Below, one piece after another: positions 44,855-63,923 of a stretch of DNA of 64,000 nt. The notes under the pieces were generated by a model, which saw only the letters and a program-made list of their open reading frames with translations, searched no databases and had not been told where the DNA came from. Within the stretch, counting starts at the first letter, position 1; every line of letters starts with the position of its first letter. The position numbers were made by a program, and so were the translations under genes. This DNA is from Escherichia coli. GTDB taxonomy: Bacteria; Pseudomonadota; Gammaproteobacteria; Enterobacterales; Enterobacteriaceae. The stretch lies in assembly GCF_030384885.1 (NCBI RefSeq), contig NZ_CP128613.1; one strand, written 5' to 3'.

Positions 44855-44916
44855 GACGAATCCTTTCATTTTTGCCCGCCGCTTTCACGAAGAAAACGGC
44901 GGGTGACATTCCTCTA

Positions 44917-45531
44917 TTACACAGCGATAAAAGCCATCCCTGTAAACGTCCGTCGCGGGTTGCCACGTTCAATCTGGTGATGGAACATTCGCCGCTGCGA
45001 TTTCAGCGCCGCGCTATTTTCCTGTCGCTGTTGTTCCAGCTTCCAGGCAATCAGTAATCGCGCCAGCCGTTTGTTAGCATGCTGGCTGCGCTCTGACTGA
45101 ACCTTCACGCTAATCCCGGATGCCAGATGCGTGGCGCGTACCGCCGAGTCGGTTTTATTGACATGTTGACCGCCCGGCCCCGACGAACGCAGCGTCTCAT
45201 AATGGATCGCATCGGATTGCTCCTGCTCATCTGAAGTAAAACGCCCAATGCCCAGAAACCAGTTTTTGCGCCCATGATGAGGGCGATACGGACTCGGACA
45301 AATCCACTGGATAGTGCCACACCAGCTTTCGCTTAGTGCCCATGCGTTGTCGCCATCAAGTGAAACCAGCGCCGAACGCAGTGTGTCAGAGTAGCGACCC
45401 GTTTCTGTTTCCAGCACCGTTACCGCGACGTCTTGTCGGGCAGCTTCTTTAATCAGCCTGTCCAGTGCCTTTTTCACTGCGAGACAACATTCTTCCGGCC
45501 CCTGAGCTGAGGAGAGTTGTAGCAAGATCAT
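44917..45531 (-). CDS. prfH: peptide chain release factor homologue PrfH
   Basis: 204 aa from MILLQ; contains [16 protein letters not shown] (GGQ motif); start overlaps rtcB stop (ATGA). Confidence 0.85.
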
Positions 45532-46667
45532 CCTTTTTTCCCTCCACTGTTTTTGAGCGTCAGCACCGGACGCAGTCGCGCGACAGGAATAATTAAACCG
45601 GCCTGCACCAGACATTGCACCACACTTTCAGCCGATTTATAGGCTTGTGGCGCTTCTTCAAAGATGAGTTGTTTATCGCGACAAATTACCCGACTGCCAA
45701 GTTCAGTACGTGAGAGTTGCGTCGCCGTGTGTTTCGCTGCCAGACGCCCTTTACACTCGGTGCGCCCCCATTTACGCCCTGCCCCATGCGCCAGCGAGTG
45801 GAGCGTTTTTTCGTTCGCAACAGGCTTAACCAGCCAGGAGTAATCACCGCGTGAACCGGGAATAATCACCAGACCGTTGTCATCCGGCGTAGCCCCTTTA
45901 CGGTGTAACCATCCTTGTTGATCGCCGATTCGACATGCGCTAACAAAGTTATGCGCCACATCCAGAACCGAATTTCCGTTGGCCTTAACTTGTTGCATTA
46001 TGCGCAAAGCGATCAGCTGGCGATTAATACGCGCAAACGCCAGCGCATCGTCATGTTCCGCAATATACCGTAGCGCGTCGTCACTGCCTTGAGGCAAACC
46101 ATGATGCGAAAACGAGGCAATATGCCGCTGTAAAATAGACTGCCCCAGCCCCCTCGAGCCGCTATGAACCAGCAGTTGCAGATGCTGCGCATCCAGACCT
46201 GCCAGTGCAAACAGTTCCGCGTCGATGATTTGATCAACTTTTTGCAGTTCTGCGAAGTGGTTTCCGCCACCGATAGAGCCAAGCGCGCAGCGCCACGGAT
46301 GCTGTGCAAACGCTGACGGCAGGTTTTCCTCCAGCCAGCTTTCTTCAGCAACGTCATCCAGCGCAGATAATCGCTTTTCAAACTTATCGGCGTTGTATTT
46401 ACGCGCGAGAATATCTGTTTGCCATAGCGCCATGCCGCAGCCGATATCATTGCCGACCAGTGCCGGGTAAAAACGGCCTACGGAGAAGAACGCTGCGCCA
46501 ATCGGATAGCCGCGTCCGGGGTGTAAATCTGGCATCCCTACTACGCGTTGCATGTCGGGTAAATTTGCCGAGGTGTGTAATTGTTGGATCGCTGAACTCT
46601 CGATCCACAGGTCATCAGATGCGATGGTAAATACCGCATCGGATAAGGGACGAATATATTTGCCCAT
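45528..46667 (-). CDS. rtcB: RtcB-family RNA ligase paired with PrfH (RtcB2-type)
   Basis: 379-aa ORF with RtcB-like His/Cys metal-site motifs (..GGNHFAE.., ..HSGSRG.., ..AHGAGR..); translationally coupled to prfH. Confidence 0.8.
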
Positions 46668-46671
46668 GTAT

Positions 46672-46770
46672 CATTCCATTTATACTCGTCATACTTCAAG
46701 TTGCATGTACTGCGACTGCGTTCGTTCACCCCAGTCACTTACTTTAGTAAGCTCCTGGGGATTCACTCGC
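46672..46770. repeat. ERIC/IRU element
   Basis: Reverse complement reads GTGAATCCCCAGGAGCTTAC.AAGTAAGTGACTGGGGTGAACGAACGCAG..ATGCAACTTGAAGTATGACGAGTATA, matching the ERIC consensus from memory. Confidence 0.65.
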
Positions 46771-46984
46771 TTGTCGCCTTCCTGCAACTCGAATTATTTA
46801 GAGTATATAAATATAAAAATCAAGAAATGGCAGACGAATCCAGGGCAAGAAAAAAAGAATTAATCCTGGAAAGGTCTGCAAAGAGTCATTGATAAAGGAT
46901 TTTTCATGATTTACCTCCTTGCAGTTTGTGGAATAAGAAAACGCGCACATATTAGGCGGGCGTTATTTTCATTGCAAGCTGGAT

Positions 46985-47437
46985 TTAGTGTTGCGGTTTA
47001 TATCGCATATGAAAATTAGTAAACCACGCTCCCCGGCATTCAACGCGCTGCTGCTTAACTGTCTGAAAACCATAACGTTCAAAAAAGGGTTTTGCGGTTA
47101 TGCTGGCATCTACCGTAAGTTCGGATTCAGACTTAATCAAAGGTTTTAACAAAGCGCTGGCAACCCCGCAGCGGTTGTATTTCGGATCAACAAATAACAT
47201 ATCGATATAATGCTCAATGCAGGTAATAAAGCCGACCAGTTGTGTATTAATAACCGCAACCCGCACTTGTGATTTCGCGAGTTTCTCTTTCCATCGATGT
47301 TCATCAATCTGCGCCCAGGCGGCAATTTGTTGTGGTGAATAATGCTGACTAGCGGTCATCGTAACCGCTCTAATAAAAATAGCGCATAGTTGCTGAAAAT
47401 CGCCAGGCTGATAGTTCCTTATTTGTATATTATTCAT
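46985..47437 (-). CDS. yafP: GNAT-family acetyltransferase
   Basis: 150-aa ORF; start overlaps dinB stop. Confidence 0.85.
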
Positions 47438-48489
47438 AATCCCAGCACCAGTTGTCTTTCCATTTGCGGATCAAGCAACGTCACATGCAGCCCCACCAGT
47501 CGCACACCGCGCCCGCCACGGCGTTCATCCCAGGTTTTACGCGCAGTGGCGATCAAGTCAGCTTTATTCAGCCGCGGCCAGACGTGTTCCTGGGTGGTTT
47601 GCTGAAAATCGTCGAACTTTAATTTCACCCCCTGGCGGGCAATCAGTAAATCAGGTTTTACCTTTGCCAGACGACGTTCAAGTTCCGGGTACAACCGCTC
47701 GATGATCGCTTCACATTCAGACCAGTGATGAATATCTTCCGCCATCGTGCGTTCTACACCGACGGATTTTCGCAACCTTTCGCTGTTAACGTCGCGCTCG
47801 TCAATGCCCTGACTACGCTCCCACAAAATGCGGCCAAATTTGCCAAAGCGTTTAAGCAATGTCACCAGATCACACTTTTGTACATCGCCGCAGGTTCGTA
47901 GCCCCATCGCTTCCAGTTTTGCCGCCGAGACTTTGCCGACACCGGGAATTTTTGCCAGCGGTAAGGTTTGCAGAAATGCCGGAACTTCTGCTGGCGTAAT
48001 CACAAACTGACCGTTGGGTTTATTCATGTCTGAGGCGATTTTGGCGAGAAACTTGACCGGCGCAACGCCCGCAGACGCCGTCAGTTGCAGCTCGTTGAAG
48101 ATCGTCTGGCGGATTTCCTGAGCGATAAGGGTCGCAGAGCCGTGGCAATGGACACTATCGGTGACGTCGAGATAGGCTTCATCCAGTGACAGCGGCTCAA
48201 TACGCGATGTGTAGCGAGAGAAGATTTCGCGGATATGATTTGACGCTTCTTTGTAGGCGTCAAAGCGCCCTGGAAGCAAGGTGAGATGCGGACACAGTTT
48301 GAGCGCCATGCCGGTTGGCATTGCGCTACGCACGCCAAATTTACGCGCAGGATAATTGGCGGTGCTGATCACCCCCCGGCGTTCGCGGCTGCCGCCAATA
48401 GCAATAGGGATATCGCGCAGGGCGGGATTGTCGCGCATCTCCACCGCGGCGAAAAAGCAGTCCATATCCACATGAATGATTTTACGCAT
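47434..48489 (-). CDS. dinB: DNA polymerase IV (Y-family)
   Basis: 351-aa [29 protein letters not shown]... Confidence 0.95.
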
Positions 48490-48503
48490 TGCTCACCTCT
48501 CAA

Positions 48504-48523
48504 TACTGGTAAAGTATACAGTG
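48504..48523 (-). promoter_or_regulatory. LexA (SOS) box of dinB
   Basis: Minus strand reads CACTGTATACTTTACCAGTA (CTGT-N8-ACAG class) 15-35 bp upstream of dinB start. Confidence 0.7.
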
Positions 48524-48559
48524 ATTTCAGAGTTTGAGAAATGCGTAAAGATTCAGCAT

Positions 48560-49138
48560 TTAACGCGTTCGCTGCGAAAGCACCTGCTGCTTATCCAGCT
48601 TTTTCACCAACGGCTGCACCACTTTATCGCCATGCTGACCAAAATATTGATACAACGTATCGGACGCGCTTTTGGTGAGCACCATAATCTCAATGCGCCG
48701 ATTGCCCGCGCTTTGTGGATTTTTGGCATCCAGCAGCATCTGGTCCGCCATTGCGCTCACCCGCGCTTCGCCCTGTAACACCGGCTGCAACTGGCGGTCC
48801 ACCGCGCCGCCGGAAAGTGCGGTGCGTTTGTCCAGCATCTGCGTGAGCGCCGTACCCTGCGCCTGCCCGCTCTTACGCTGGCTATGACGATAATCGAGCA
48901 ATTGCTGCTCCAGTTGCCCGAGATAGTGATCCGCCTGCTGCAACGTGGTGAGCTGATCGTTAAGCTGCACGCTGTAACGCTGCGGGCGAGTGGTAATCAG
49001 CGGCGAGGCCGGATATTCACTCGCCGTCGCCGGGAGCTTTTGCCGCACCGCCTGAGTGGGCGCAACGGTTGACGACGATACCGCAGCGCTATGCGCGCCG
49101 CCGGTGGCGAGTGATGAAGATGTAAGTCCGACCTGCAT
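48560..49138 (-). pseudogene. remnant ORF carrying a MotB/OmpA-type C-terminal motif (LafU/MbhA-like), probably a deletion-fusion product
   Basis: 192-aa ORF ending ..NRRIEIMVLTKS.. (OmpA-like peptidoglycan-binding signature) but lacking MotB N-terminal TM region; sits where the flagellin/motor (laf) cluster would be. Confidence 0.45.
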
Positions 49139-49154
49139 ACTGTTCCTGAAAGAG

Positions 49155-50084
49155 TTAGAGAACGCTGAACAAATTCAACTCACTCACCTTCGAGTAAGTC
49201 TTGAGGGTAGCTTCCATTGCCACTTCCAGTCCGGTAAAGGTGATCGACGCCGGGCCGTAATCGAGATCCTGCAATGAACCAATCAACTCATCATTAGAGG
49301 TAGAGATATCGGTCTGCGCATCGCTCAGCATCGACATGGTGTTTTGTGTCTCGCCGAGCGACGCAATCGAGGCGTTGAGGTCGTCCGAGGCGGTGTCCAC
49401 CACATTAACGGCGTTTTGAATATCGCTTTGTACCTGCGGATCTGCCGGGTCAACGTTAGGGTTTTGCAACTCCTGCGACAGGGCATTGAGCGTGTTGAGC
49501 ACATCTAAATTGCTGCCAAAGAAATCGCTCGCCGCCACGTTGGTGTCTACTTCGACGCCGTTCGACACCGTAGTCTGGCGATGGTCGCTGTTACCCTGAT
49601 AGCTGTAGCGATCGGTCACGCCATCACCGTCATCGTCCACCGCCACAATCGGCGGTTGATCGTTGATAGTGCCGCCAAAGACGTAATGCCCGTCTTCATC
49701 CTGATAGTTGAGCGCCGCCACCATCGATTCGGTTAGCGACTCAATATCCTGACCGAGGCTTGCCAGCGAATCGGCGGTATTGGTGCCGTTCGCTGCTTCC
49801 AGCAGGTCGTCGCGCACCGCCAGCAGGCTGTTGTTGACGCCATCAAGAATGGATTCCTGCTGGCTTAAGCCCGCCGACGCGGAGTCGATATTGCTCTGAT
49901 ACTGCTCAATCGCCGACTGCTGGCGGTTCAACTGGGTGATACGTGTGGCGGCGATAGGATCATCCGATGGCTGCAAAATTTCCTTGCCGGTTGCCATCTG
50001 CTCGACCACGTGCGCCAGTTCGCCAGAAAGATTATTAAAACTTTGCGTCATCGAGACGTAGGTTTGTTGGGTGGTTACTCGCAT
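49155..50084 (-). CDS. lfgL: flagellar hook-associated protein 3 (lateral system)
   Basis: FlgL-like N-terminus from MRVTTQQ; flagellin-type terminal helices. Confidence 0.8.
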   Translation of the reverse strand: MRVTTQQTYVSMTQSFNNLSGELAHVVEQMATGKEILQPSDDPIAATRITQLNRQQSAIEQYQSNIDSASAGLSQQESILDGVNNSLLAVRDDLLEAANGTNTADSLASLGQDIESLTESMVAALNYQDEDGHYVFGGTINDQPPIVAVDDDGDGVTDRYSYQGNSDHRQTTVSNGVEVDTNVAASDFFGSNLDVLNTLNALSQELQNPNVDPADPQVQSDIQNAVNVVDTASDDLNASIASLGETQNTMSMLSDAQTDISTSNDELIGSLQDLDYGPASITFTGLEVAMEATLKTYSKVSELNLFSVL

Positions 50085-50098
50085 TTTCGCGCTCCCGC

Positions 50099-51475
50099 TT
50101 AGCTGCACATTTCCAGCACCGAATCAAAAATCTCGGCCCCGGCGGAAATGACTTTCAGATTGGCTTCATAAATTTGTTGATAGGTGATCAGGTTCACCGC
50201 CTCTTCGTCCATGCTGACGCCGCTGACGCTGCTCTGCTGGTTTTGCGCCTCAGAATAGACATTGGACGCAGCGGTCACTTCGGTCTGGTTTTGCTGAGTG
50301 TAAATGCCAATATTGCTGATGATCGACGAGCACGCTTGCCCGACCGTCACGCTGCCGAGGTTGGCTATCTCCAGCGGCTCAGTGGAGATGTTGATCAGCG
50401 CCTGCAGGTTGTCGCTGTTGCCGCTTTCGTCCGGCGAACTGGAGAACGCCAGTTCATCGGCGGTGATATCCGGGTTAACGGTCAGCGGGCCATCGGCATT
50501 ACTGGCATCGTAAATAAACAGCGGCTCGCCGGGGTTACCGTTGAGATCATAGCCCTGCGCCAGCTGATTGTTGACCGCATCGGCGAACTGCGACGCCATG
50601 CTGTTGATGGTGTCGGTCAGCGGCGTCAGCACGTCGTTTTGATAATCAAAAAGTGCGCCTAATGAACCGCCGGTATCGGTGGTCATGGTCGAGGTCGTTC
50701 CGGCAAAGGTCAGTGTCATCGTTGGCGTGCCATCGGCGTTGGTTTCCAGCGCGATGGTCGAACTTTGCTGCCCGCTCACCAGCGGCTGACCGTTTTGCAG
50801 GGTGACGTTGTAGTTGCCCTGGTCGTCGATATTGACCTGCACATCCATCATTCCGCTGAGTTCTTCCACCATCTGATCACGAGCGTCATACAGCGCGGAG
50901 GCGTTATCACCGTTGGCTTCGGCCTGGGCGATTTGCTGGTTATAGCTGGCGATGCCGCTGGTGAGCGTATTGATTTGCGACACCATCGCCTGCTGCTGGC
51001 TGATGATTTCTGTGCTTTGCGAGTCGATGTAATCGAGCGTGTTATCGATACGCAACGACAGCGCCCCGGCTTCGCTGATCACCTGCTCGCGCAGGGCAGA
51101 ATCATCGGGGCTGGTGGTCGCTTCGTTGAGGGCCGCGAAAAAGTTATCGAACCCGCCGCTCAGGCTACTGTTATCGTCGCTCAATACCGCTTCCAGTTGC
51201 GTGAGATACCCTTGCTGGGTGTTGTAATAGCCGTAATCGCTGGCGGCATACCACACCTGATTCACCTGATACTGGTTGGAGACGCGACGAATGCTGTCCA
51301 CCTGTACACCGTTTCCGGCGCTGTTCGGCGAACCGCCGCTGGCACCGATGGTGCTGATCTCCGCCACCTGGCGGGTGTAGCCCGTGGTCATGGCGTTAGC
51401 GGTGTTTTGCGCCGTGACGTTCAGCTCCACCTGCGCCGTTGATGCGCCGCTGTAGCCGATGTTAATCATGTCCAT
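50099..51475 (-). CDS. lfgK: flagellar hook-associated protein 1 (lateral system)
   Basis: 458-aa ORF; FlgK-like N-terminus ..AQNTANAMTTGYTRQ.. Confidence 0.85.
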   Translation of the reverse strand: MDMINIGYSGASTAQVELNVTAQNTANAMTTGYTRQVAEISTIGASGGSPNSAGNGVQVDSIRRVSNQYQVNQVWYAASDYGYYNTQQGYLTQLEAVLSDDNSSLSGGFDNFFAALNEATTSPDDSALREQVISEAGALSLRIDNTLDYIDSQSTEIISQQQAMVSQINTLTSGIASYNQQIAQAEANGDNASALYDARDQMVEELSGMMDVQVNIDDQGNYNVTLQNGQPLVSGQQSSTIALETNADGTPTMTLTFAGTTSTMTTDTGGSLGALFDYQNDVLTPLTDTINSMASQFADAVNNQLAQGYDLNGNPGEPLFIYDASNADGPLTVNPDITADELAFSSSPDESGNSDNLQALINISTEPLEIANLGSVTVGQACSSIISNIGIYTQQNQTEVTAASNVYSEAQNQQSSVSGVSMDEEAVNLITYQQIYEANLKVISAGAEIFDSVLEMCS

Positions 51476-51544
51476 GTTGGATCCTTACCGGTAAATCGTG
51501 CCGGATAAAAGCGGCGTGAAGTTGGGGATTCTTAAGTTCCGTAA

Positions 51545-51895
<351 letters not shown>

Positions 51896-51896
51896 C

Positions 51897-52196
51897 TCAT
51901 TTATGCTTCGGCGACAACTGCTTCACAATCATCGCCGCGATCCCTATCCCGTGCTGCTGCGCCAGGGTGTTACACAACTCATCGTCATAAAACCCCTGCA
52001 TCATGCGCACCGAATCGCTGTTAAATGGGTTATCTTTCGAATCAAACAACTCGTTGGTTTTACGCATCTCTTTCAGCATGTTGCGTAAAAAAATCGCCTC
52101 AAACTGTTCGGCGGCCTGCTTAATATCATTGGCCTGAACCTTCGGCCCCATTAACGCATCGCTGCCGTCAATCCCGCCGCTGGCGTTGACTTTCAT
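51897..52196 (-). CDS. lfgJ: FlgJ-like rod-binding protein, short form without muramidase domain
   Basis: 99-aa ORF; ..QFEAIFLRNMLKEMRKT.. aligns with FlgJ N-terminal rod-binding domain. Confidence 0.7.
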   Translation of the reverse strand: MKVNASGGIDGSDALMGPKVQANDIKQAAEQFEAIFLRNMLKEMRKTNELFDSKDNPFNSDSVRMMQGFYDDELCNTLAQQHGIGIAAMIVKQLSPKHK

Positions 52197-53296
52197 CAGA
52201 TCACCTCCAGGTCGGCATCCAGCGCGCCCGCTTCATGCAGCGCCTGCAAAATCGACATAATGTCGTCCGGCGTTGCGCCTAAACTGTTCAGCGCATTGAC
52301 CAGCGTTTTCAGGCTGCTCGACTCCGGCAAACTCACCACGCCCGGACGGGCATGATTCACCGCGATATTGCTCTGCGGCGTTACCGCCGTACGCCCGCCC
52401 GCAAAGGCATTCGGCTGGCTGACGTTGCTGGTTTCGTTAATTGAGACGGTCAGGCTGCCGTGCGACACCGCCGCCGCGTGCAGCGCGATGCCATCGCCCA
52501 TCACCACCGTACCGGTACGCGAGTTAAACACCACGCGGGCGCGGATTTTCTCCGCCTGCACCTGCACATCATCCAGTTGCGACATAAACGCCACCCGCGC
52601 GCCGGGGCTGGTGGGCGCACGCACGGTGACGTTGGTGGAACTCTGCGCCGTGGCAATGCCGCCAAACGAAGCGTTGATCGCCGCCGCAATGTTGTTGGCG
52701 TCTTTAAACGACGGGCGTTTCAGGTTAAGCGTGATGGTGTCGCCCATCTGAAAATCGCTGGGGATTTCGCGCTCCACCGTCGCGCCATTGGGGATTAACC
52801 CGGCGGTCGGCGTATTAACCGTTACGCTCGAGCCGCTGGCCCCGGTGGCATTCATCCCGCCCACCACCACACTTCCCTGCGCCAGGGCATACACTTCGCC
52901 ATCTGCGCCGTGCAACTGGGTCAGCAGCAAGGTGCCGCCGCGAATACTTTTGGCATCGCCAATCGACGAGACGGTGACATCAATAGTCTGCCCACGCGAG
53001 TACATCGGCGGCAACGTGGCGCTCACCGCCACCGCGGCGACGTTTTTCACCTTCGGGTCGATTTTATTTGGCAACTGCACGCCAAACTGGCGCAGCATAT
53101 TGGTGATGGTCTGGTTGGTGAATTTGACCTGGTTTTTATCGCCCGTACCGTCGAGGCCGACCACCAGGCTGTAGCCGACCAGTTGGTTTTCACGCACGCC
53201 CTGTACGTTGACCAGCGACTCCAGCGATTGCGCCAGCGCCACGCCAGGTAGCGCCAGGCTTACGGCTACCATCACCGTTTTTATCCAGTTTTGCAT
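52196..53296 (-). CDS. lfgI: flagellar P-ring protein
   Basis: FlgI-like; start at Met with GGAGAG RBS giving signal peptide [22 protein letters not shown]. Confidence 0.9.
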
Positions 53297-53310
53297 TGCA
53301 CTCTCCGGCA

Positions 53311-53976
53311 TTAAATCGGGAACAGAGGATGGTTAAACAGCCGGGTCAGCCAGCCTGCGGCGTTGGCGTCGCTTAACGCGCCACGTCCGGCATAGGAGAT
53401 ACGGGCGTCGGCGATCCGCTGGGAAGAAACCGAGTTGTCATTCTGGATATCGTCGGCGCGCACCAGGCCGCTTAAGCGGATGTACTCATCGCCCTGATTG
53501 AGGGTGAGCCATTTCTCGCCGCGAATTTCCAGGATGCCGTTGGGCTGCACCGCATGGACGGAAACAGTGATCTCCCCGCGCAGACTGTTCTGCTGCTGGG
53601 ACGTGGCGCTGCCGTCAAAGTCGCGGTTGGCGTCGATGGAGCCGGAGAGGTTATTTTTGGTGTGACCAAATACCGTTGGCGCGGTGATATCGACGCTGTT
53701 GCTTTTGCCGAAATTGGTTTTCGCCTGTTTGCTCGACTGGGTCGATTCTTCGAGGATCACCGTCAGGATATCGCCCACGCGATAAGCCCGCCGATCGGCG
53801 GTTAGCGACCAGTTGTAGCCCGTTTCAAACACGCCCCCGGCACGCCCGTCTGCCGGAGGCGGCGCTTCGGTTTTCGGTGGCGCAAAGTATGCGTCGTCTT
53901 TTTTGACCAGAATGGCCTGCGATTCACACCCGCTAAGCAGGGGAAGCAGCGCCACCAGCCAGAGATAATTTTTCAC
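53311..53976 (-). CDS. lfgH: flagellar L-ring lipoprotein
   Basis: 221-aa ORF with lipobox LLSGC. Confidence 0.9.
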
Positions 53977-54045
53977 GTTCTGCCTGTTTAGTGTTGCAGG
54001 CCACGGGGTGGCCGGTTGTTTGGTGGGTTGGAGCGGGTTTGTTCC

Positions 54046-54158
54046 CCCTCACCCTAACCCTCTCCCCAAAGGGGCGAGGGGACCGATCGAGCGCGTTTTT
54101 ACATCGTGCTCCACTTTTCTCCCTCTCCCTGTGGGAGAGGGCCGGGGTGAGGGCATCA
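54046..54158. repeat. about 112-bp GC-rich palindromic intergenic repeat, copy 1
   Basis: Terminal inverted motifs CCCCTCACCC...GGGTGAGGG and internal hairpin CCCTCTCCC-TGT-GGGAGAGGG; reverse complement of copy at 61282-61392. Confidence 0.65.
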
Positions 54159-54179
54159 GGCCGCACCGCCCTTAACGCC

Positions 54180-54965
54180 TTACAGCGTCTGACTGATGTA
54201 CTGCAACATATCGTCCGCCGCCGACACCATTTTGGCGTTCATCTCGTAGGCACGTTGCACCGTAATCATCGCCACCATTTCGTTGACGATATCCACGTTC
54301 GAGCCTTCGAGCGCATTGTCCTGCAAGGTGCCAAGCCCATCTTCGCCCGGTACGCCTTCGGTCGGCTGACCGCTGGCGGCGGTTTCCAGATAGAGGTTGT
54401 CACCCTCGGCAGAAAGCCCCGCCGGGTTGGCGAAGTTGACCAGCGTCAGTTGCCCTAACTCGGTCACGTCGCTGTCGCCAGGTAAGATAGCCGTCACCGT
54501 GCCGTCCTCACCAAACGCAACATTCGTCGCCCCCGCCGGAACGTCGATTTCCGGCTGTAACGGCAAGCCCTGCGAGTTGGTCAGCACGCCGTCGGCGTTC
54601 ACCTGCAAGTTGCCGTCGCGGGTATAGGCGATATCGCCGTTGGCCTTTTGCACCTGCAAAAACCCCTGCCCCATAATGGCGACATTCATCGCGTTGTCGG
54701 TGGTTTCGACGTTGCCTTCGGTAAAGGTTTTCTGAGTGCCGACAATGCGCACGCCGCTACCGAATTGCAGCCCGGTCGGCATGATGTTGTTCTGGTCGAG
54801 CATCGCGCCCGGCGCTTCCTGGGTCTGGTAGAACAGATCCTGAAACATCACCCGGTCGCGCTTGAAGCCGGTGGTGTTAACGTTGGCGATGTTGTTGGCA
54901 ATCGCGCTCATTTCAGCATCCTGCGCCGAGAGGCCGGTTTTGCTGATCCATAATGCTGCGTTCAT
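54180..54965 (-). CDS. lfgG: flagellar distal rod protein
   Basis: 261 aa from MNAALWISKTGL; ORF-track extension upstream runs into a REP element. Confidence 0.85.
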   Translation of the reverse strand: MNAALWISKTGLSAQDAEMSAIANNIANVNTTGFKRDRVMFQDLFYQTQEAPGAMLDQNNIMPTGLQFGSGVRIVGTQKTFTEGNVETTDNAMNVAIMGQGFLQVQKANGDIAYTRDGNLQVNADGVLTNSQGLPLQPEIDVPAGATNVAFGEDGTVTAILPGDSDVTELGQLTLVNFANPAGLSAEGDNLYLETAASGQPTEGVPGEDGLGTLQDNALEGSNVDIVNEMVAMITVQRAYEMNAKMVSAADDMLQYISQTL

Positions 54966-54984
54966 GGTGGTAAATTCCGTGTTA

Positions 54985-55140
<156 letters not shown>

Positions 55141-55143
55141 CGG

Positions 55144-55881
55144 TTACGAGCCGCGCAATAAGCGGTTGCCCGCGTCGCTGATATCTTCGGCGGTTTTCAT
55201 CATTTTGATCTGCGCTTCAAACTGGCGGTTCATGGCGATGGACGACATCATTTCGCTCACCGCCGAGACGTTGCTGCCCTCGAGAAAACCGCCGCTGACT
55301 TTGATGTTTTCATCACGCTGGGCCGGAACGCCGTCGCTAGTCACCAGCATCCCTTCAGGATTTTTCGCCAGGTTAGCAACCGGGATATCCACCAGCTTCA
55401 GGCGGTCGATATCCATCGTGGCGGTCACGTCACCGTCATCGGGCGTCACCGACAGCGTGCCGTCGCTGCCAAACGAGGCAATGGCGTTCGGCGGCAGAAT
55501 GATCGGGCCGTTATCCCCCAGTACCAGATTGCCGTCGATGGTCAGTTGCCCCTGATCGTCCTGCTGAATGTTGCCGTTGCGGGTATAAACTTCGTTGCCG
55601 TTTTTATCCTGCACCGCAATGTAACCCGCCCCCTGAATCGCCACGTCCAGCGGGCGTTCGGTTTTCTCCGCCACACCCGTGCTGTCGTTCACGCCGCTGG
55701 CCCCTTCCTGCGCCATATAGCGCGTGTCGAAGCCGCCGCCTTTCACCTTGTCGTTGGTCGCCATCGCCATATCGGCGCGAAAACCGTTGGTGTTGACGTT
55801 CGCCAGGTTGTTGGCGCTAATTTGCTGCTCGTACAACGTCTGAGAAGCCCCGCTCAGGGCGGTATAAATCAAGCGATCCAT
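55144..55881 (-). CDS. lfgF: flagellar proximal rod protein
   Basis: 245-aa FlgF-like ORF; start overlaps lfgE stop. Confidence 0.9.
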   Translation of the reverse strand: MDRLIYTALSGASQTLYEQQISANNLANVNTNGFRADMAMATNDKVKGGGFDTRYMAQEGASGVNDSTGVAEKTERPLDVAIQGAGYIAVQDKNGNEVYTRNGNIQQDDQGQLTIDGNLVLGDNGPIILPPNAIASFGSDGTLSVTPDDGDVTATMDIDRLKLVDIPVANLAKNPEGMLVTSDGVPAQRDENIKVSGGFLEGSNVSAVSEMMSSIAMNRQFEAQIKMMKTAEDISDAGNRLLRGS

Positions 55882-57083
55882 TACATTGCCTGGAACAGCG
55901 CGTCATCGAGCTGTGTGCTGGTGGCGATAACTTTGGTGTTGGCCTGATAGTTACGCTGGGCGGTCATCAGGTTAACCAGTTCGCTGGTGATATCGACGTT
56001 AGAGCTTTCGAGCACACCGGACGACAGCGTGCCGCAGGTGCCGGAGCCGGGAACGCCAATCAGTGGCGTGCCGGATTCCCCGGTTTGTACCCATGCGGTG
56101 CCGCTCACTGCCTCCAGGCCGTTTTCATTCGGGAAAGTCGCCAGCACCACTTGGCCCTGCAACATGCGCTCGCCGTTGCTGTAGGTGGCGTAAACTTTGC
56201 CATCGTCATCAACCTGCACACCGTTTTGCGTGGCGGAAGCGTAACCGTTGGCGGAGTTGGTGGTGACAGAAAATTCAGAACCGTATTGCGTACAGGTGGA
56301 GTAATCGACGGTCAAATCGATGGGCGCGGCGGCGTCGGTCTGAAACTCAATGGTCTGCGGCGTAGTTGGCGAGGTCAGTTTTCCGGTATTCGGGTCGAAG
56401 GTTAAGGTCGTCGCCGGAACACCAGTCTGCTGCTGACCGTCGAAGGTGTACTGCACTTCCCAGGTGTTATCGCTGGTTTTGGTGAAGTACTGGCATACCG
56501 AGTGTTCGTTACCTAATGAGTCATACACCGTGGTGGTGTAGCTGTCGGTGTACGAACTGCTGTTGGTCGGATCGAACGGCACGGTAGTGCGGTCGATAGC
56601 GTCGTCACTGGCATCGAAGTTGGCGGTAAAGGTCAGGCTGCTGCTGGCCTGCGCCGGGATATTGCCGGTTTTGATCTGGATATCCGTCACCGTACCGGTT
56701 TGCAAAGTGCCGCTGTCATCGACCGGATAGCCCTGCAAATAAGCGCCCGAGGCGTTAACGATATAGCCGTCTTTGTCCGTTTCAAACGATCCGGCGCGGG
56801 TATAAGAGATGTTGCCTGCGCTGTCGCACATCACAAAAAAGCCGTCGTCGTTAATCGCCAGATCCAGCGCATTACCGGTGGAGACCAGCGAACCGCCGCG
56901 CGAAATACTTTGCGCGGTGCCCGCCACGCTGACGCCCATTGCCTGGCTTCCGGCATACATGGCTGAAAACTGGGTAGTCATCGACTTATACCCCACCGTT
57001 CCGGCGTTAGCGATGTTGTTACTGATCCCGTCCAGCTGTTCGTTAACGGCATTCAGCCCCGTTGCGGCAATTTCATAACTCAT
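55881..57083 (-). CDS. lfgE: flagellar hook protein
   Basis: 400-aa FlgE-like ORF. Confidence 0.9.
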   Translation of the reverse strand: MSYEIAATGLNAVNEQLDGISNNIANAGTVGYKSMTTQFSAMYAGSQAMGVSVAGTAQSISRGGSLVSTGNALDLAINDDGFFVMCDSAGNISYTRAGSFETDKDGYIVNASGAYLQGYPVDDSGTLQTGTVTDIQIKTGNIPAQASSSLTFTANFDASDDAIDRTTVPFDPTNSSSYTDSYTTTVYDSLGNEHSVCQYFTKTSDNTWEVQYTFDGQQQTGVPATTLTFDPNTGKLTSPTTPQTIEFQTDAAAPIDLTVDYSTCTQYGSEFSVTTNSANGYASATQNGVQVDDDGKVYATYSNGERMLQGQVVLATFPNENGLEAVSGTAWVQTGESGTPLIGVPGSGTCGTLSSGVLESSNVDITSELVNLMTAQRNYQANTKVIATSTQLDDALFQAM

Positions 57084-57106
57084 TGTTTCTTCCTGTTAAT
57101 TGATTC

Positions 57107-57820
57107 TTACGCCACATCACTGTCGGCATCGGGTACGCCAAACTGGCTAATCATGGTGAACGGCACTTCGCCCACACCTGCAACGTTGAGCACCGGAGAG
57201 CTGCCGTCGAGCGGGATACGTACATCCTCCACTTCGCCGGAGACTTCAATCGGTACCTCTTCTTCCCCGGTGTTGGTCACCACCGAAACGTCGTAATCAC
57301 CCGGCGGGATGCCGTAATCCGCCGGATTAATCGAGAAATCAACCTGGCCTGGTCCAACCGACGAACTCCCTTCCGGGATCAGCGAGACGGTGTAGTCATC
57401 GCCCGCGGCATCGGTAAAGTGGAGTTCGGCGGTGGTACAGGCGTCGTCCAGTGTGGCGCGACCGTTAATGGTCTGGTCACTCACCTGCAAGGCGGTGGTC
57501 TGCACCATAATGTCGTCGCCCACCAGGTTGCCGAGCGCCATCACCTGAATGTTGCTCATCAGCACCGCGTTGGTATTGGCCTGCACGCTCATCTCTTCCA
57601 TCATCGCCACCTGCGCCATCGACGAAAGCTGGTCGATATATTCGGTGGCATCGGTCGGGTCGGTCGGGTCCTGGTTTTGGATCTCGGCGACAAACAGCGT
57701 CAGGAAAGTATCGACGGGCGAGCTATCGCTGCTGCTTGTCGTGTCGCTGGCCGCCACGTTGTTGCTTTCCGCCGTGGCGGTCGGCTGCGGCGATTGCGCA
57801 TTCAGCGCCAGGGTATTCAT
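57107..57820 (-). CDS. lfgD: flagellar hook capping/assembly protein
   Basis: 237-aa FlgD-like ORF. Confidence 0.85.
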   Translation of the reverse strand: MNTLALNAQSPQPTATAESNNVAASDTTSSSDSSPVDTFLTLFVAEIQNQDPTDPTDATEYIDQLSSMAQVAMMEEMSVQANTNAVLMSNIQVMALGNLVGDDIMVQTTALQVSDQTINGRATLDDACTTAELHFTDAAGDDYTVSLIPEGSSSVGPGQVDFSINPADYGIPPGDYDVSVVTNTGEEEVPIEVSGEVEDVRIPLDGSSPVLNVAGVGEVPFTMISQFGVPDADSDVA

Positions 57821-58251
57821 CAGGCTTCTCCCAGTTTCAGCAGGCTTTGCTGCATACTTTTCACGTTGTTGAGCACATCGACATTGGTTTCAAAATCGCG
57901 CGAAGCCGACATCATGTCCGCCATCTGTTCCACCACGTTGACGTCGGGATACCAGACATCGCCGTTGGCATCCGCCAGCGGCGAATGCGGTTCATAGCGT
58001 TTCAGCGCCCCGCCGGTTTGCAGCACGTCCTGCACCTGCACGCTGGCGCCGTCAATGGCATGACGATGCGTTCCCGCCAGCAAACTGTGGTGATACACCG
58101 CGGCAAACACCGGGCTGCGTGCTTTATACGCCTGCGCCTCGCTGCTGGCGGGCGCATTGGCATTCGCCAGGTTACTGGCGACGGTATTCAGACGCAGCGT
58201 TTGCGCCGTCATCGCCGAGCCGGAAATCTGATAGATATCAGTAAATGACAT
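57820..58251 (-). CDS. lfgC: flagellar proximal rod protein
   Basis: 143-aa FlgC-like ORF. Confidence 0.9.
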   Translation of the reverse strand: MSFTDIYQISGSAMTAQTLRLNTVASNLANANAPASSEAQAYKARSPVFAAVYHHSLLAGTHRHAIDGASVQVQDVLQTGGALKRYEPHSPLADANGDVWYPDVNVVEQMADMMSASRDFETNVDVLNNVKSMQQSLLKLGEA

Positions 58252-58253
58252 GC

Positions 58254-58589
58254 TTATTTCCCTTCAATGGCCTCTCTGATACCGCTGATTTGCAGATTCA
58301 GAAAGGTCAGACTGCTTTGATAATCCATACTATTTTGTGAAAACCGCGCCTGTTCGCTGTTCAGTTCCACGGTGTTACCATCTTCCGACGGCTGCATCGG
58401 CACGCGGTACTGCACATCCACCGCCGCGTTATTTGCCCGTTGCATCTCCCTGGCAAAATCAATATCTTTAGCCTTGAAATTTGGCGTATCGACATTCGCC
58501 AGATTCGCAGTCAGTAGCTCGGTCCTCTCAAGACGTAACTTCACTGCCTGCGGATGTACTCCCAATGCTTGCTGAAAACTGATCCCCAT
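58254..58589 (-). CDS. lfgB: flagellar proximal rod protein
   Basis: FlgB-like; start at MGISFQQ because a sigma-54 promoter occupies the longer ORF's first codons. Confidence 0.8.
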   Translation of the reverse strand: MGISFQQALGVHPQAVKLRLERTELLTANLANVDTPNFKAKDIDFAREMQRANNAAVDVQYRVPMQPSEDGNTVELNSEQARFSQNSMDYQSSLTFLNLQISGIREAIEGK

Positions 58590-58670: not shown

Positions 58671-59408
58671 ATGAGTTTTCAATTTTGCAGGCGGAAGTTG
58701 TATTTCCTCCTGGCGCTGGCCTTACCGGGCTACGCCGCCGTCCATCCCGTGCAACATAGCGCGCGGGAACAAGTCAACGCCCAGGTGCTGAATGCCGCGA
58801 GCCAGCAGATTGAATCGCTGGCGCAACAGCGGCAGTGGCATGACTATCGCTACACCTTTAAGGTCTACATTCCCTCGCAGATTGCGACCGCCGCGCCCTG
58901 CGCTACGGCCCCCGGCGTCACGCTGACTTCGCCTGCGGAAATCGCTCTCAACCGGATGAACTTCACCGTCAGTTGCCCGCAAAGCTGGCAGATGAACGTT
59001 GCGGTGCGCCCGGATGTTCTGGTGCCGGTGGTGATGGCGAAGTCACTGGTTGCCCGCGATACGCCGCTCACGGCAAATGATGTGGAGCTGAAGCCCTACA
59101 ACGTCAGCGCCCAGCGGCGGGATGTGCTGATGGATCTCAATGAAGCGATTGGTTTAAGCAGCAAACATGCCCTGCAACCAGGCAGGCCGCTTACCAAAGA
59201 AGAACTGGTTTCGCCAGTGCTGATCGAGCGCGATCAGCCGGTGATGATTGTTTACCAGAGCGCGGGGATCACCGCCTCGATGCCCGGCGTGGCGCTGAAA
59301 AATGGTCGCAAAGGGGAAATGGTGAAAGTACGTAACGCCAGCAGTCAGCGGGTCATTAGCGCAATAGTGGCGGAAAGCGGCGTGGTGACAACGGTAAGCG
59401 CGGAGTAA
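58671..59408 (+). CDS. lfgA: flagellar P-ring assembly chaperone
   Basis: FlgA-like ORF, signal peptide from internal Met; divergent from lfgB. Confidence 0.75.
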   Translation: MSFQFCRRKLYFLLALALPGYAAVHPVQHSAREQVNAQVLNAASQQIESLAQQRQWHDYRYTFKVYIPSQIATAAPCATAPGVTLTSPAEIALNRMNFTVSCPQSWQMNVAVRPDVLVPVVMAKSLVARDTPLTANDVELKPYNVSAQRRDVLMDLNEAIGLSSKHALQPGRPLTKEELVSPVLIERDQPVMIVYQSAGITASMPGVALKNGRKGEMVKVRNASSQRVISAIVAESGVVTTVSAE

Positions 59409-59488
59409 TTTACGCAGGCGATTAAAGTTTTGCCGCCTGTTAACCGCTTTACCGGAGTAACACACCTTCAAACAGAGACGAGGTTGCG

Positions 59489-59764
59489 ATGAAAATCACC
59501 CCGACTATGCCAGGCAATCGCCCGACAGCCACAACGGCAGGCTCCAGCCAGCCGCGCAAAACTACGGCGACCACCACGACGCTCAGCGCCGACGACATTA
59601 CCCAGGCGGGATTGCAGTCTGCCCAGCAAACGCTGAACGACCAGCAAGAGAGCGATATCGACAGCGATAAAGTGGCGCAAATGCAGGCGATGCTGGCGTC
59701 CGGCAGCCTGCAAGTGGACACCGAACAGTTAGCCAGCGACATGCTGAGTTTTTTCCAGAACTAA
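59489..59764 (+). CDS. lfgM: anti-sigma-28 factor FlgM-like
   Basis: 91-aa ORF, Thr/Gln-rich, C-terminal amphipathic helix pattern. Confidence 0.7.
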   Translation: MKITPTMPGNRPTATTAGSSQPRKTTATTTTLSADDITQAGLQSAQQTLNDQQESDIDSDKVAQMQAMLASGSLQVDTEQLASDMLSFFQN

Positions 59765-59776
59765 GAGGCCGATGAA

Positions 59777-60205
59777 GTGAGTATCCGGTTACAACAGGTG
59801 AAGGCGTTGTTGCAGGGAATTCGTGACGACGACGCACTGTACGATTCCCTGCGCGAACTTCTCCAGCGTCAGCGGATCTGCATGATTCGCCGCGCCAGTG
59901 AAGAGTTGATGGCGGTAAACGACGAGATAACGCAGCACTATGAGCAGTTGCATGGGCATAGCCATCAGCGGCACAGCCTGCTGCAACTGCTGGGTGTCAG
60001 CGTAAATCGTGACGGTCTGGCGCAGGTGTTTGCCTGGCTTCCGGCGGTACAAAAAGCGGCAGCACAACAGTTGTGGCAACGCCTGGAGCAAAAAACGGAA
60101 CGCTGCAAAGCCTATAACGATAAAAACGGCGAGCTGTTGATTCGTCAGTATGAATTTATTCAGTCTTTTTTAGGCAGCGAAGCGGATTTTCTGTATCAGG
60201 AATAA
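59777..60205 (+). CDS. lfgN: FlgN-like export chaperone
   Basis: 142-aa ORF, GTG start, follows lfgM. Confidence 0.65.
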   Translation: MSIRLQQVKALLQGIRDDDALYDSLRELLQRQRICMIRRASEELMAVNDEITQHYEQLHGHSHQRHSLLQLLGVSVNRDGLAQVFAWLPAVQKAAAQQLWQRLEQKTERCKAYNDKNGELLIRQYEFIQSFLGSEADFLYQE

Positions 60206-60331: not shown

Positions 60332-61261
60332 ATGAGTTTTATTGAATGTTACGAACCGGAATATGTGCGCAATTTTATGGCGCAATATCCCGATTCGCCT
60401 TTATACGTCCGCAAGGTGTGGAAGAATGAGATTCGCCAGAGCCTGGCATTGACCGATATTGCCAGTTGCAAAGCAGTGCTCAACGATGCCAGGGCCTTTG
60501 AATTACAGCTTACCTATCGCCCTGTGGAAGAAAATGCCGCAGCACTCTCCGCGCGCGATGCGATAGTAAACCAGATAATTTTGAGCACCCTCACGCTCCC
60601 GGATTTAACCCCAGAGCTTTCACTGTATGCCGTCGGTATCCTGCTCTCCCGCGCCAATAAAATGCCGGGCAGAGACGGCGACACTCTTGCCCGGCTGACA
60701 ACGCTGCCGCAGGCGCTGGCCGATCACGCACAAAAAGGCACGCTACAGGCACAGTTCGCCCAGCTACCGCCCGTGCCACAGCTGGCGCGCCAACTGGTGA
60801 CACTGCTCGGCAGTTGTGCGTTTGACTGGTCGATTCTGCCAGAAAGCCCGCGCAAAGCCTCGCTACCGTTGCAGGTGACTTTGCTGACGCTGCACGACGC
60901 CAACAGCGAAGCCCTGTTACAGCATCAGCTTCAGACGCAGTGGCAAACCACCTGGCAACAGCATTTTGCCACCGCGCCGTGGATGATGCGTAACTGGCTG
61001 ATTTACCGCGTTTACCACGATGTGATTGGGCAGACTGACGGGGCGGATTATTGCCCGCTGGTGTGCGATTTTTACCTCATCCGCACGTTAATCAGTTTAT
61101 GGACGCTGGATGATTCACCGCTGCGGCAGGAGGATATTTTCGCCCTCTTCGCGGTGTTTGAACGCTGGCGAGTGAGTGAAAATGCGCTGTTAGTTCGCCA
61201 GCAAATTCAGTCGTTATGTGCCGCCGAGCCGCTGCTTTCAGCGTTTTCGCTGCTTACATGA
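60332..61261 (+). CDS. hypothetical protein associated with lateral flagellar locus
   Basis: ORF 60293-61261 (TTG-initiated in track); first ATG at 60332; no motif. Confidence 0.45.
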   Translation: MSFIECYEPEYVRNFMAQYPDSPLYVRKVWKNEIRQSLALTDIASCKAVLNDARAFELQLTYRPVEENAAALSARDAIVNQIILSTLTLPDLTPELSLYAVGILLSRANKMPGRDGDTLARLTTLPQALADHAQKGTLQAQFAQLPPVPQLARQLVTLLGSCAFDWSILPESPRKASLPLQVTLLTLHDANSEALLQHQLQTQWQTTWQQHFATAPWMMRNWLIYRVYHDVIGQTDGADYCPLVCDFYLIRTLISLWTLDDSPLRQEDIFALFAVFERWRVSENALLVRQQIQSLCAAEPLLSAFSLLT

Positions 61262-61281
61262 ATCGCTCTGTGCGCGCTGAT

Positions 61282-61392
61282 GCCCCTCACCCCGGCCCTC
61301 TCCCACAGGGAGAGGGAGAAAACCTGCGCCCAATTCAGCACCACGCTCGATCGGTCCCCTCGCCCCTTCGGGGAGAGGGTTAGGGTGAGGGG
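61282..61392. repeat. about 112-bp GC-rich palindromic intergenic repeat, copy 2 (inverted relative to copy 1)
   Basis: Reverse complement aligns with 54046-54158. Confidence 0.65.
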
Positions 61393-61451
61393 CAAAGCGC
61401 GCATAGCGCCTCCTAACCCATCACATTCACCCACTAACTCACCCAAACACC

Positions 61452-63923
61452 ATGCCAACACCAAGCATCATCAAAACACTCGCCACCCACCGCGAAAAAC
61501 CGTTCGTCAGCGTCGTCACGCCAACCTGGAACCGCGGCGCATTCCTCCCGTACCTGCTCTATATGTACCGCTATCAGAACTACCCGGCAGACCGCCGCGA
61601 ACTGATCATCCTCGACGACTCACCGCAAAGCCATCAACACATCATCGACCGCCTGACCAATGGCACACCGGAAGCCTTTAACATCCGCTACATCCATCAC
61701 CCGGAAAAACTGCCGCTGGGCAAAAAACGCAATATGCTCAACGAACTGGCGAGCGGCGAATATATCCTCTGCATGGATGACGACGACTACTACCCGGCAG
61801 ATAAAATCTCCTGGACCATCGCCATGATGCAAAAACACCGGGCGCTGATCTCTGGTTCCGACCAGATCCCCATCTGGTACAGCCATATCAACCGCATCTT
61901 TCAAAGCCGCAGCTTTGGCCCGCATAACATCCTCAACGGCACCTTTTGTTATCACCGTAACTACCTGAAAAAGCACCGTTACGATGACGATTGCAATTTA
62001 GGCGAAGAGAAAAGTTTCACCGACAATTTCAGCGTTAACCCGCTACAACTGCCCAGCGAACGCACCATTTTGTGTATCTCGCATAGCCACAACACCTTTG
62101 ATAAAGATTTTATTCTTGGGGCCAGCACGCCTGTAAATGCCGAACTGAGCGATATCGTCAGCGATCCGCTGCTACGCAATGCTTATCTGAGTCTGCATAA
62201 CGCCACGCATCACCAGGGGATCAACCATCAGGCGATCGATCAGATAGTTGTTGTGAATCTGGATAAACGCCCGGATCGTTTACGGCAGATCCGTGAAGAG
62301 CTGGCATTGCTGCATATTCCGCCTGAAAAAATTACCCGCCTTGCCGCCTGTGAAGATGAAAACGGTCAACGGGGCCGCCGCCTGTCGCACTTGCAGGCGC
62401 TACGCCTGGCGCAACAGCACAGCTGGCAAAATTACCTGCTGCTGGAAGATGACGCGGTTATTCTCAAGCAGGAGAAACATATTCAGGTACTGAACACGCT
62501 GCTGGCGAGCCTGGCGAAAATCCCCTGGCAGGTGATGATCCTTGGTGGCGAAATTTCGCAAGGAACAATGCTAAAAAGCCTGCCGGGGCTGGTGCACGCG
62601 CGGGACTGCCGCAAAGTGTGCGCTTATCTGGTGAACAGTCGTTACTACCCACAACTGGCGCAGCAGATGGGCAACGATGAGCACTCGCTGGAAGACGGCT
62701 GGCAGCCACTGCTACGCGCCGACAAATGGCTGGCCTGTTACCCGAGTATTTGTTACCAGCGACCGGGCTTTAGCGATATCGAGAAAAAAGCGACCGATAA
62801 CATCATTCACTATTTCAATAAGTTACCCATAGCCACAAAGCCATCCGCATTACCCATCGCCGACACCATCGGCTTTTTAATGGAAACCTCATTCCACTAC
62901 GCGCTCTATCGCCCAATCATCACCGCCCTACAGGCGCAGGGGCAAAGTTGCACACTGGTAATCAACGATCGCGTGTTTAAACCGTTTCTGGATGAAATGC
63001 TGGCGACGCTAAAAAGCATCGACGATCCGCAGCTTAAAGGTATGCGCTTGTCTGAAATGCAGGCACACGGTCAGCGGGTGAAATGCCTGGTCAGCCCCTA
63101 CCACACACCCGCGCTCAATGGCCTTTCACCCGTGAACATCCGCGCCATGTACGGCTTAGCCAAAGAAACGTGGAACCACGCCGACTGGAACCGTTTTTAT
63201 CAACGCATTTTGTGTTACAGCCACTACAGCCAGCAGGCGCTGGCGCACCTCAGCAGCGCGAAAGTGGTCGGCAACCCACGCTTCGACGCCTGGCATAACG
63301 GCACGTTTGACCGCGCCCTGCCGGAAAATATCCAACCCGATTCCCGTAAACCTACGGTGCTCTACGCCCCCACGTTTGGCGCATTAAGCTCCCTGCCCCA
63401 CTGGGCAGAAAAATTGGGGCGCTTGAGCGGTGATGTGAACCTGATTTGCAAACTGCACCACGGTACCTGCTCGCGCCCGGAAGAAGCCGCATCGCTAACC
63501 CAGGCACGCAGGCATTTAAAACAGTGCACCAACTCAGCCCAGCACACACTGGCGCAGCTGGCAAAGGCCGATTACGTGCTCACCGATAACAGCGGCTTTA
63601 TTTTCGATGCTATCCACGTTGATAAGCGAGTGATCCTGCTCGACTTTCCGGGTATGACGGAACTGCTCGACGGTGAGAAAAGTTACTCCACGGCGGAGAG
63701 CGCTGACCAGCGGATTCGCGAAATATTGCCGGTGGCTCATGATATGGCTGAGCTGCGTTACTTATTGTCAGAGGCGTTTGACTGGGGGGCGGTACAGGCG
63801 CGGCTTACGGAGATTCGCCATCACTATTGTGACGCGTTTATGGATGGCAAGGCGGGAGAACGGGCGGCGATGGTGGTTGTGGAGGCGCTGGCGGGCAAGG
63901 AACCGTCAGGAATATGTCGATAA
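61452..63923 (+). CDS. multidomain glycosyltransferase (GT2-like, GT25-like and TagF-like glycerophosphotransferase modules)
   Basis: 823-aa ORF; N-terminal VVTPTWNRG..LDDSP..CMDDDD (GT-A/DXD); middle VVNLDKRPDRL (GT25-like); C-terminal region TagB/F-like. Confidence 0.65.
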   Translation: MPTPSIIKTLATHREKPFVSVVTPTWNRGAFLPYLLYMYRYQNYPADRRELIILDDSPQSHQHIIDRLTNGTPEAFNIRYIHHPEKLPLGKKRNMLNELASGEYILCMDDDDYYPADKISWTIAMMQKHRALISGSDQIPIWYSHINRIFQSRSFGPHNILNGTFCYHRNYLKKHRYDDDCNLGEEKSFTDNFSVNPLQLPSERTILCISHSHNTFDKDFILGASTPVNAELSDIVSDPLLRNAYLSLHNATHHQGINHQAIDQIVVVNLDKRPDRLRQIREELALLHIPPEKITRLAACEDENGQRGRRLSHLQALRLAQQHSWQNYLLLEDDAVILKQEKHIQVLNTLLASLAKIPWQVMILGGEISQGTMLKSLPGLVHARDCRKVCAYLVNSRYYPQLAQQMGNDEHSLEDGWQPLLRADKWLACYPSICYQRPGFSDIEKKATDNIIHYFNKLPIATKPSALPIADTIGFLMETSFHYALYRPIITALQAQGQSCTLVINDRVFKPFLDEMLATLKSIDDPQLKGMRLSEMQAHGQRVKCLVSPYHTPALNGLSPVNIRAMYGLAKETWNHADWNRFYQRILCYSHYSQQALAHLSSAKVVGNPRFDAWHNGTFDRALPENIQPDSRKPTVLYAPTFGALSSLPHWAEKLGRLSGDVNLICKLHHGTCSRPEEAASLTQARRHLKQCTNSAQHTLAQLAKADYVLTDNSGFIFDAIHVDKRVILLDFPGMTELLDGEKSYSTAESADQRIREILPVAHDMAELRYLLSEAFDWGAVQARLTEIRHHYCDAFMDGKAGERAAMVVVEALAGKEPSGICR

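Follow-up and report, generated by a model that had tools for sequence, protein, structure and literature searches.

A chimeric lafW-lafU reading frame beside dinB, very probably the scar of one recent 9,111-bp deletion in an otherwise complete Flag-2 locus of Escherichia coli

The E. coli DNA analysed here, a stretch of 64,000 nucleotides from contig NZ_CP128613.1 (assembly GCF_030384885.1; hereafter the window), carries the lfg genes of the Flag-2 lateral flagellar locus next to dinB. Between them stands a single 192-aa ORF, at the place where complete Flag-2 loci carry the laf genes. How did this ORF arise, and what became of the genes that are missing? In our assessment it is very probably the scar of one recent 9,111-bp deletion in an otherwise complete locus.

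As stated in the initial annotation, which had been made from the sequence alone, the lfgL-dinB interval contains only one credible ORF (Table 1). It starts 16 nt past the lfgL stop codon and ends 70 nt ahead of the dinB start, and the remaining ORFs of the interval are short, overlapping frames of the plus strand. Its product (HBA5946412.1 at NCBI, named only ‘hypothetical protein’) is a chimera in which LafW 1-127 continues in frame into LafU 243-307, with V127 common to both. Residues 127-192 are identical to LafU residues 242-307 (66/66), and the NRRIEI motif, from which an OmpA/MotB-type ending had been deduced, occupies residues 146-151 within this stretch. The N-terminus, on the other hand, had been considered unrelated, which is incorrect: residues 1-127 are those of LafW, the product of the first gene of the deleted cluster. 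They agree with LafW of E. coli MFDS1022581 at 124 of 127 positions, and the DNA encoding them is 100% identical to that of the closest complete locus (L009, see below). As the N-terminus is LafW, the chimera derives at either end from Flag-2 cluster 3.

Table 1. Position of the chimeric ORF, the retained Flag-2 genes and neighbouring features in the window
Feature	Position	Strand	Remarks
dinB, chromosomal flank	47434..48489	-	promoter and LexA box untouched by the deletion
chimeric ORF lafW'-'lafU	48560..49138	-	ATG start, 192 aa; sole credible ORF of the lfgL-dinB interval
lafU-derived 3' part	48560..48761	-	codons 242-307 and stop, 202 bp; 100% identical to L009 20435-20930
deletion junction	48757..48761	.	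sole surviving 5-bp repeat copy: TCACC on the plus strand, GGTGA in gene orientation
lafW-derived 5' part	48757..49138	-	codons 1-127, own start codon, AGGA ribosome-binding site 6 nt upstream
lfgL	49155..50084	-	upstream neighbour of the chimera
Flag-2 cluster 2 structural genes lfgL, K, J, I, H, G, F, E, D, C, B	49155..58589	-	full length, Pfam families
lfgA, lfgM (anti-sigma-28), lfgN	58671..60205	+	mapped from L006 gene calls, 100% identity
variable region 1 (VR1) cargo: FliB-like protein (PF27117) and 823-aa glycosyltransferase	60332..63923	+	
recombinase-like fragment	25215-25814	-	22911-36105 island
HK97-type portal	26628-27623	-	22911-36105 island
P27-type small terminase	29547-30050	-	22911-36105 island
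tyrosine integrase	34943-36106	+	22911-36105 island

Stator proteins of the MotB/LafU kind bear a transmembrane helix with a plug (PF13677), a complete OmpA domain (PF00691) and a score above the cutoff of the NCBIfam LafU model NF005273. Full-length LafU contains both MotB_plug (PF13677) and OmpA (PF00691), the OmpA-like domain spanning approximately residues 143-268. None of these features is found complete in the chimera, which aligns to NF005273 (297 positions) over positions 240-297 only, with a score of 112.7 bits (cutoff 383), and has no Pfam match on record. It retains roughly the last 27 residues of the peptidoglycan-binding, OmpA-like domain of about 125 residues and is devoid of the transmembrane helix and the plug. 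Judged by its domain content, the chimera is a fragment of LafU and no member of the LafU/MotB family. As the helix, the plug and some 80% of the OmpA-like domain are missing, it should be unable to act as a stator. LafW is described as a putative hook-associated protein specific to flag-2 in the account given in PMC6993521; it matched no NCBIfam family and has no Pfam match on record. No sigma-70-like promoter belonging to the chimera was found in the sequence, and we predict that the chimeric protein is non-functional.

The breakpoints were mapped, as had been proposed, by alignment to complete loci, namely L009 (GCA_049984605.1) and L001 (E. coli MFDS1022581), the latter being 97.4% identical. 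The right arm of L009 is complete (lafW-lafZ-lafA-lafB-lafC-lafD-lafE-lafF-lafS-lafT-lafU), and the gene order in MFDS1022581 is dinB-lafU-lafT-lafS-lafF-lafE-lafD-lafC-lafB-hyp-lafA-lafZ-lafW-lfgL. The expectation that a complete locus carries flagellin, cap, sigma factor and motor genes at this place was thus borne out by MFDS1022581, and also by 23 long contigs (see below). L009 1-11328 corresponds to window 60084-48757, and L009 20435-20930 to window 48761-48266, both at 100.000% identity. The two blocks share exactly 5 bases at the junction, and relative to L009 exactly 9,111 bp (3 x 3,037) are missing, the breaks lying in lafW codon 127 and lafU codon 242; alignment to L001 places the breakpoints identically. 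The laf cluster is therefore replaced by a fusion remnant (LafW 1-127 plus LafU 242-307), just as the initial annotation had held. When the 11 Laf proteins were compared with the whole window by tblastn, only the LafW and LafU fragments were found, besides a weak paralogous match of LafA to LfgL. The flagellin, cap, chaperone, hook-length, FliL-like, sigma-28 and MotA genes present here in complete loci are absent from the window.

The 5 shared bases are a direct repeat, GGTGA, found in L009 at 11324-11328 and 20435-20439 with a spacing of 9,111 bp; when extended, the repeat matches at 7 of 8 positions (TCACCyGC). The junction contains no IS, no filler DNA, no inverted segment and no integrase or att-like sequence. 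A repeat at both parental endpoints, one remaining copy, and neither filler nor mobile element in between are the features by which a microhomology deletion is recognised. A random junction would show homology of at least 5 bp with a probability of about 0.5% [P(k) = (k+1)(1/4)^k(3/4)^2, our own calculation], and for this reason the GGTGA repeat very probably guided the deletion. The most likely route would be short-homology illegitimate recombination: replication slippage (copy-choice) or microhomology-mediated end joining between the GGTGA copies may have taken place independently of RecA, leaving one copy and inserting nothing. Since 9,111 is divisible by three and lafW and lafU are read in the same direction, the outcome was an accidental in-frame ORF of 192 aa, which by chance is expected in one case out of three.

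Short-homology, RecA-independent deletions are reportedly represented in the lacI deletion spectra described for E. coli by Albertini et al. in 1982, and the misalignment models are said to have been reviewed by Lovett in 2004. The junction in the window resembles such E. coli deletions in its two short direct repeats, the single copy left and the seamless joint. It differs from typical examples in that 9.1 kb is a large distance to be bridged by a 5-bp repeat; slippage across 9 kb with only 5 bp of homology is a rare event, which counts against slippage as the particular step.

Two readings would leave the laf genes in the genome, either at another site or hidden by an error of assembly. The laf cluster might have been moved by inversion or translocation and be present elsewhere in the same genome, the sequence examined for laf genes being 64 kb of that genome. 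However, the truncated lafW and lafU are collinear, in the same orientation and in frame, and their flanks are in native order, which is the signature of a deletion, whereas after an inversion one of the ends would abut sequence in reverse complement. Inversion was rejected on these grounds. The junction offers no IS, integrase or att-like sequence on which a translocation could rely, and an excised 9.1-kb circle would, according to its gene list, carry no replication or integration functions; we consider relocation extremely improbable. The idea that the junction is an assembly artefact, i.e. a collapse between short repeats, draws on the fact that the NCBI record is a third-party short-read assembly. 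Yet the junction occurs with 100%-identical flanks in the source of the window, in GCA_017755465.1, and in the Logan assemblies of ERR12948940 (and one more sample), SRR34489103 and SRR12517544. A 5-bp repeat is, moreover, unable to collapse an assembly graph. Because the junction is identical in GCA_017755465.1 and in the Logan assemblies of at least three other runs, it is not an artefact, and the probability that we would still assign to such an error is negligible.

A genuine deletion raises the question of how much of the locus it left intact. The retention of the lfg cluster, claimed in the initial annotation, was borne out in full: all 14 of the 14 genes of cluster 2 (lfgNMABCDEFGHIJKL) are full length, without a mismatch to L009 over 11,328 bp. 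Cluster 3 (lafWZABCDEFSTU) is represented by lafW codons 1-127 and lafU codons 242-307 only, and the locus keeps its chromosomal position beside dinB. Direct reading of the sequence shows the LexA box of dinB (CTG-N10-CAG, approximately 48504-48523) and the promoter-like hexamers to be intact. The window ends, at 64000, in VR1 (a concept introduced from PMC6993521), which lies between clusters 2 and 1. In relatives whose sequence is 100% identical to window 51452-64000, cluster 1 is complete (lfiJIHGFE, lafK, lfiMNPQR, lfhBA) and is followed by hicAB-yafL; the composite intact locus of these relatives measures about 38.1 kb and holds all 39 of the genes given as conserved by De Maayer et al. 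(PMC6993521). The junction-bearing contig is 77 kb long and runs 22 kb past the window end. It is therefore likely, judging from these identical relatives as far as cluster 1 is concerned, that two of the three Flag-2 clusters are retained, which refines the ‘half present’ of the initial annotation.

Some smaller differences were noted within cluster 2. The lfgJ-lfgK spacer is 421 bp long in the window and 210 bp in MFDS1022581, and a tandem array at 51569-51884 (118-bp period, 2.7 copies, 86% matches) with REP/BIME-type palindromes lies in it, resembling the REP copies around rayT in K-12. MFDS1022581 bears a type II restriction-modification pair (C5 cytosine methyltransferase and endonuclease) between lfgA and lfgM (L001 30478-33194), which the window does not have.

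The loss comprises lafZ, lafA, lafB, lafC, lafD, lafE, lafF, lafS and lafT as a whole, and lafW and lafU by truncation. The functions concerned are those of the regulator LafZ, the flagellin LafA, the cap LafB, the chaperones LafC and LafD, the hook-length control protein LafE, sigma-28 (LafS) and the stator proteins LafT (MotA) and LafU; LafF is also lost. The lateral system would thereby be left without filament, late-gene transcription and torque, and with these genes gone the lateral flagellum should be neither built nor turned. The retained lfg genes would then constitute functionless cargo that has not yet begun to decay.

How old and how widespread is this deletion? Junction-spanning matches were found in 0 of 5,426 complete E. 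coli genomes, whereas the K-12-type junction is present in 4,073 of them. In the same collection, 1,270 genomes contain lfgKL, and 1,168 contain the 9.1-kb segment to at least 80%. A 31-nt junction pattern gave no match among 100,044 GTDB species representatives (one genome each), which fits a strain-level event. Among about 15 billion proteins the chimera forms a singleton cluster at 90% identity; it is present on about 6 contigs, all 100% identical to the window, and no fewer than 4 independent assemblies have the identical junction. An LfgL protein identical to that of the window, on the other hand, occurs in 219 blocks of the assembly collection, and all 23 of the 23 long contigs examined with identical LfgL have the full right arm, from lafW through lafU, beside dinB. 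An intact laf cluster is the norm for this lineage. Over the retained lfg region there are no differences from the intact relatives, neither over 11,328 bp (L009) nor over 12,549 bp (L006). As the flanks do not diverge at all from those of intact relatives, the deletion must be very recent, and secondary decay has not begun.

The best known Flag-2 remnant is the K-12-type scar, a fusion of lfhA (fhiA) to the 3' part of lafU (mbhA), reported by Ren et al. 2005 as summarised in PMC6993521. Like the deletion in the window, it lies in the locus beside dinB, leaves a 3' fragment of lafU and has short direct repeats at its ends. K-12, however, keeps 772 bp of lafU, joined to lfhA, and has lost about 35.6 kb with all three clusters, while the window keeps 202 bp of lafU, joined to lafW, and has lost 9.1 kb with cluster 3 alone. 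In K-12 (L013) positions 5294-7191 align to L001 up to 11464. The K-12-type junction, ...CTGTTGACwATC of lafU joined to AACTTTATTGTC... of lfhA, was not found in the window, where lafU homology ends at 48761, 202 bp from the stop codon. Because both endpoints differ, the erosion in the window is independent of that in K-12, as the initial annotation had proposed from the deletion endpoint.

A K-12-type scar was also encountered in a very close relative of the window. E. coli 2013C-4282 (NZ_CP027579.1) bears the lfhA'-'lafU scar (L014 4642-7111 / L015 35304-37773), and its sequence is 99.99% identical to window 1-22911 and 36105-48761, up to exactly the junction. Between this scar and the intact locus of the lineage there are 0 differences, whether on the lafU side (770 bp compared) or on the lfhA side (1,700 bp). 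The divergence of the 2013C-4282 scar from that of K-12 is about 6%, and yet the breakpoint nucleotide is the same. At distances of 4, 13, 16 and 25 bp from the junction, and also at dozens of other sites, the scars of K-12 and EC42405 have bases different from those of the window lineage. Import of a K-12-like or EC42405-like scar into 2013C-4282 was rejected, as this strain has the lineage bases at the four positions named. A similar pairing of scar and haplotype holds for K-12, whose dinB-lafU remnant has 1 mismatch in 1,898 bases to E. coli LR-33, in which lafU is full length. In the distance matrix each scar pairs with an intact allele of its own haplotype (1/1,066 and 1/1,065 differences), while 57 of 1,065 positions distinguish one scar from the other. 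By these distances, the scar alleles are polyphyletic relative to the intact alleles.

The homology at the lfhA-lafU junction is weak, consisting of a perfect ATC inside an imperfect CTGnTGAnnATC. The simplest reading would be that the same junction formed independently on haplotypes about 6% apart, and the 2013C-4282 scar suggests recurrent deletion at a very weak repeat. It is also possible that this scar was acquired by very fine-scale conversion, or from a donor of the same haplotype whose scar has not been sampled. Three Flag-2 states occur on flanks with at most about 1 difference in 10,000 bases, namely the intact locus, the 9.1-kb lafW-lafU deletion and the K-12-type scar. We suggest only tentatively, and without considering it the more probable view, that Flag-2 has been dismantled repeatedly and by different routes in one clone, and that the near-universal ‘K-12 scar’ is a recurrent hotspot and not a single ancestral event.

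The lineage itself is divergent at this locus. Window 46900-64000 departs by about 5-6% from nearly all other E. coli, locus- or scar-bearing alike, and window 1-12000 by only about 2-3.5% from its better matches. Assignment to another Escherichia species, first suggested by the 94% identity to most E. coli, was rejected, as 2013C-4282 is 99.99% identical over window 1-22911 and 36105-48761 and many NCBI assemblies of E. coli match the lfg region at 100% identity. The dinB-Flag-2 segment may be an old or introgressed haplotype around the locus.

Several further features of the flank were observed. An island of about 13.2 kb (22911-36105), located beside tRNA-Thr and proA and missing from 2013C-4282, looks like a cryptic prophage or a satellite remnant (see Table 1 for its genes). 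Its site is presumably the one where K-12 has CP4-6. The yafN-yafO toxin-antitoxin pair, found in K-12 between dinB and yafP (L013 4548-5242), is absent at window 46985-48489, where dinB and yafP overlap directly. In 2013C-4282 dinB is annotated as frameshifted, and the aligned block containing dinB has a one-base gap relative to the window; the frameshift may be an assembly error.

Partial losses of Flag-2 are well documented. According to De Maayer et al. 2020 (PMC6993521), 22% of flag-2 loci are devoid of at least one conserved gene; Y. enterocolitica lacks cluster 1 and Citrobacter clade A lacks clusters 2 and 3 (PMC6993521), and lafK-lfiEFGHIJ is missing from E. albertii (PMC11420993). 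The deletion in the window resembles these published en bloc losses in that one whole cluster is gone and the others are kept. A loss of cluster 3 alone in E. coli was not among the cases found in PMC6993521 or PMC11420993. Transposition is named in PMC6993521 as the main driver of flag-2 deletions; in contrast to such losses, the junction in the window is IS-free with 5-bp microhomology, and an IS-mediated deletion was rejected in view of its seamless joint.

A third kind of internal deletion was noticed in E. coli LR-33 (NZ_AP027523.1, L020 6001-6544), in which a 168-bp remnant of lfgK is joined to lafC (fliS). The 3' part of lfgK, lfgL, lafW, lafZ, lafA and lafB are gone, while lafC through lafU are kept on a K-12-like haplotype. 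LR-33 and the window have in common an independent internal deletion, the loss of flagellin and cap genes, and the joining of truncated or neighbouring flagellar genes.

Might the deletion in the window be adaptive? The cell would then shed a flagellin antigen, sigma-28 and an energy-consuming stator, and keep an export-competent hook-basal body together with an exported chimera in a new role. The in-frame fusion retains the LafW N-terminus, the ribosome-binding site and the operon position, the remaining genes are undamaged, and Flag-2 was lost a second time, in a different way, in the same clone; LR-33, with its third kind of deletion, is likewise without lafA and lafB. However, one deletion in three would produce an in-frame fusion by chance, and the chimera is devoid of any recognisable domain. 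The loss extends to LafE (hook-length control) and LafS, there are about 6 contigs with the junction against hundreds with an intact locus, and at zero divergence from intact relatives the deletion is too young for purifying selection to be visible. We therefore regard adaptation as highly unlikely.

The deletion is ordinary reductive evolution. As partial Flag-2 deletions have already been documented, it represents a new allele of a known process, which is unusual only in being IS-free and in frame, and in being caught at zero divergence. By itself it is of minor importance, i.e. a very young, lineage-restricted allele within the well-documented decay of Flag-2, although it captures an exact IS-free breakpoint without any divergence from the intact parent type. 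The occurrence of a K-12-type junction on unrelated haplotypes bears on the question of whether that scar had one origin or many. If the repeated dismantling of the locus in one clone were true, it would point to a continuing pressure to shed the flagellin and motor genes of the lateral system. No function of Flag-2 has ever been demonstrated in E. coli (PMC3032704), and natural near-isogenic sets, with the locus intact, with cluster 3 deleted and with the whole locus deleted, could be helpful in testing it.
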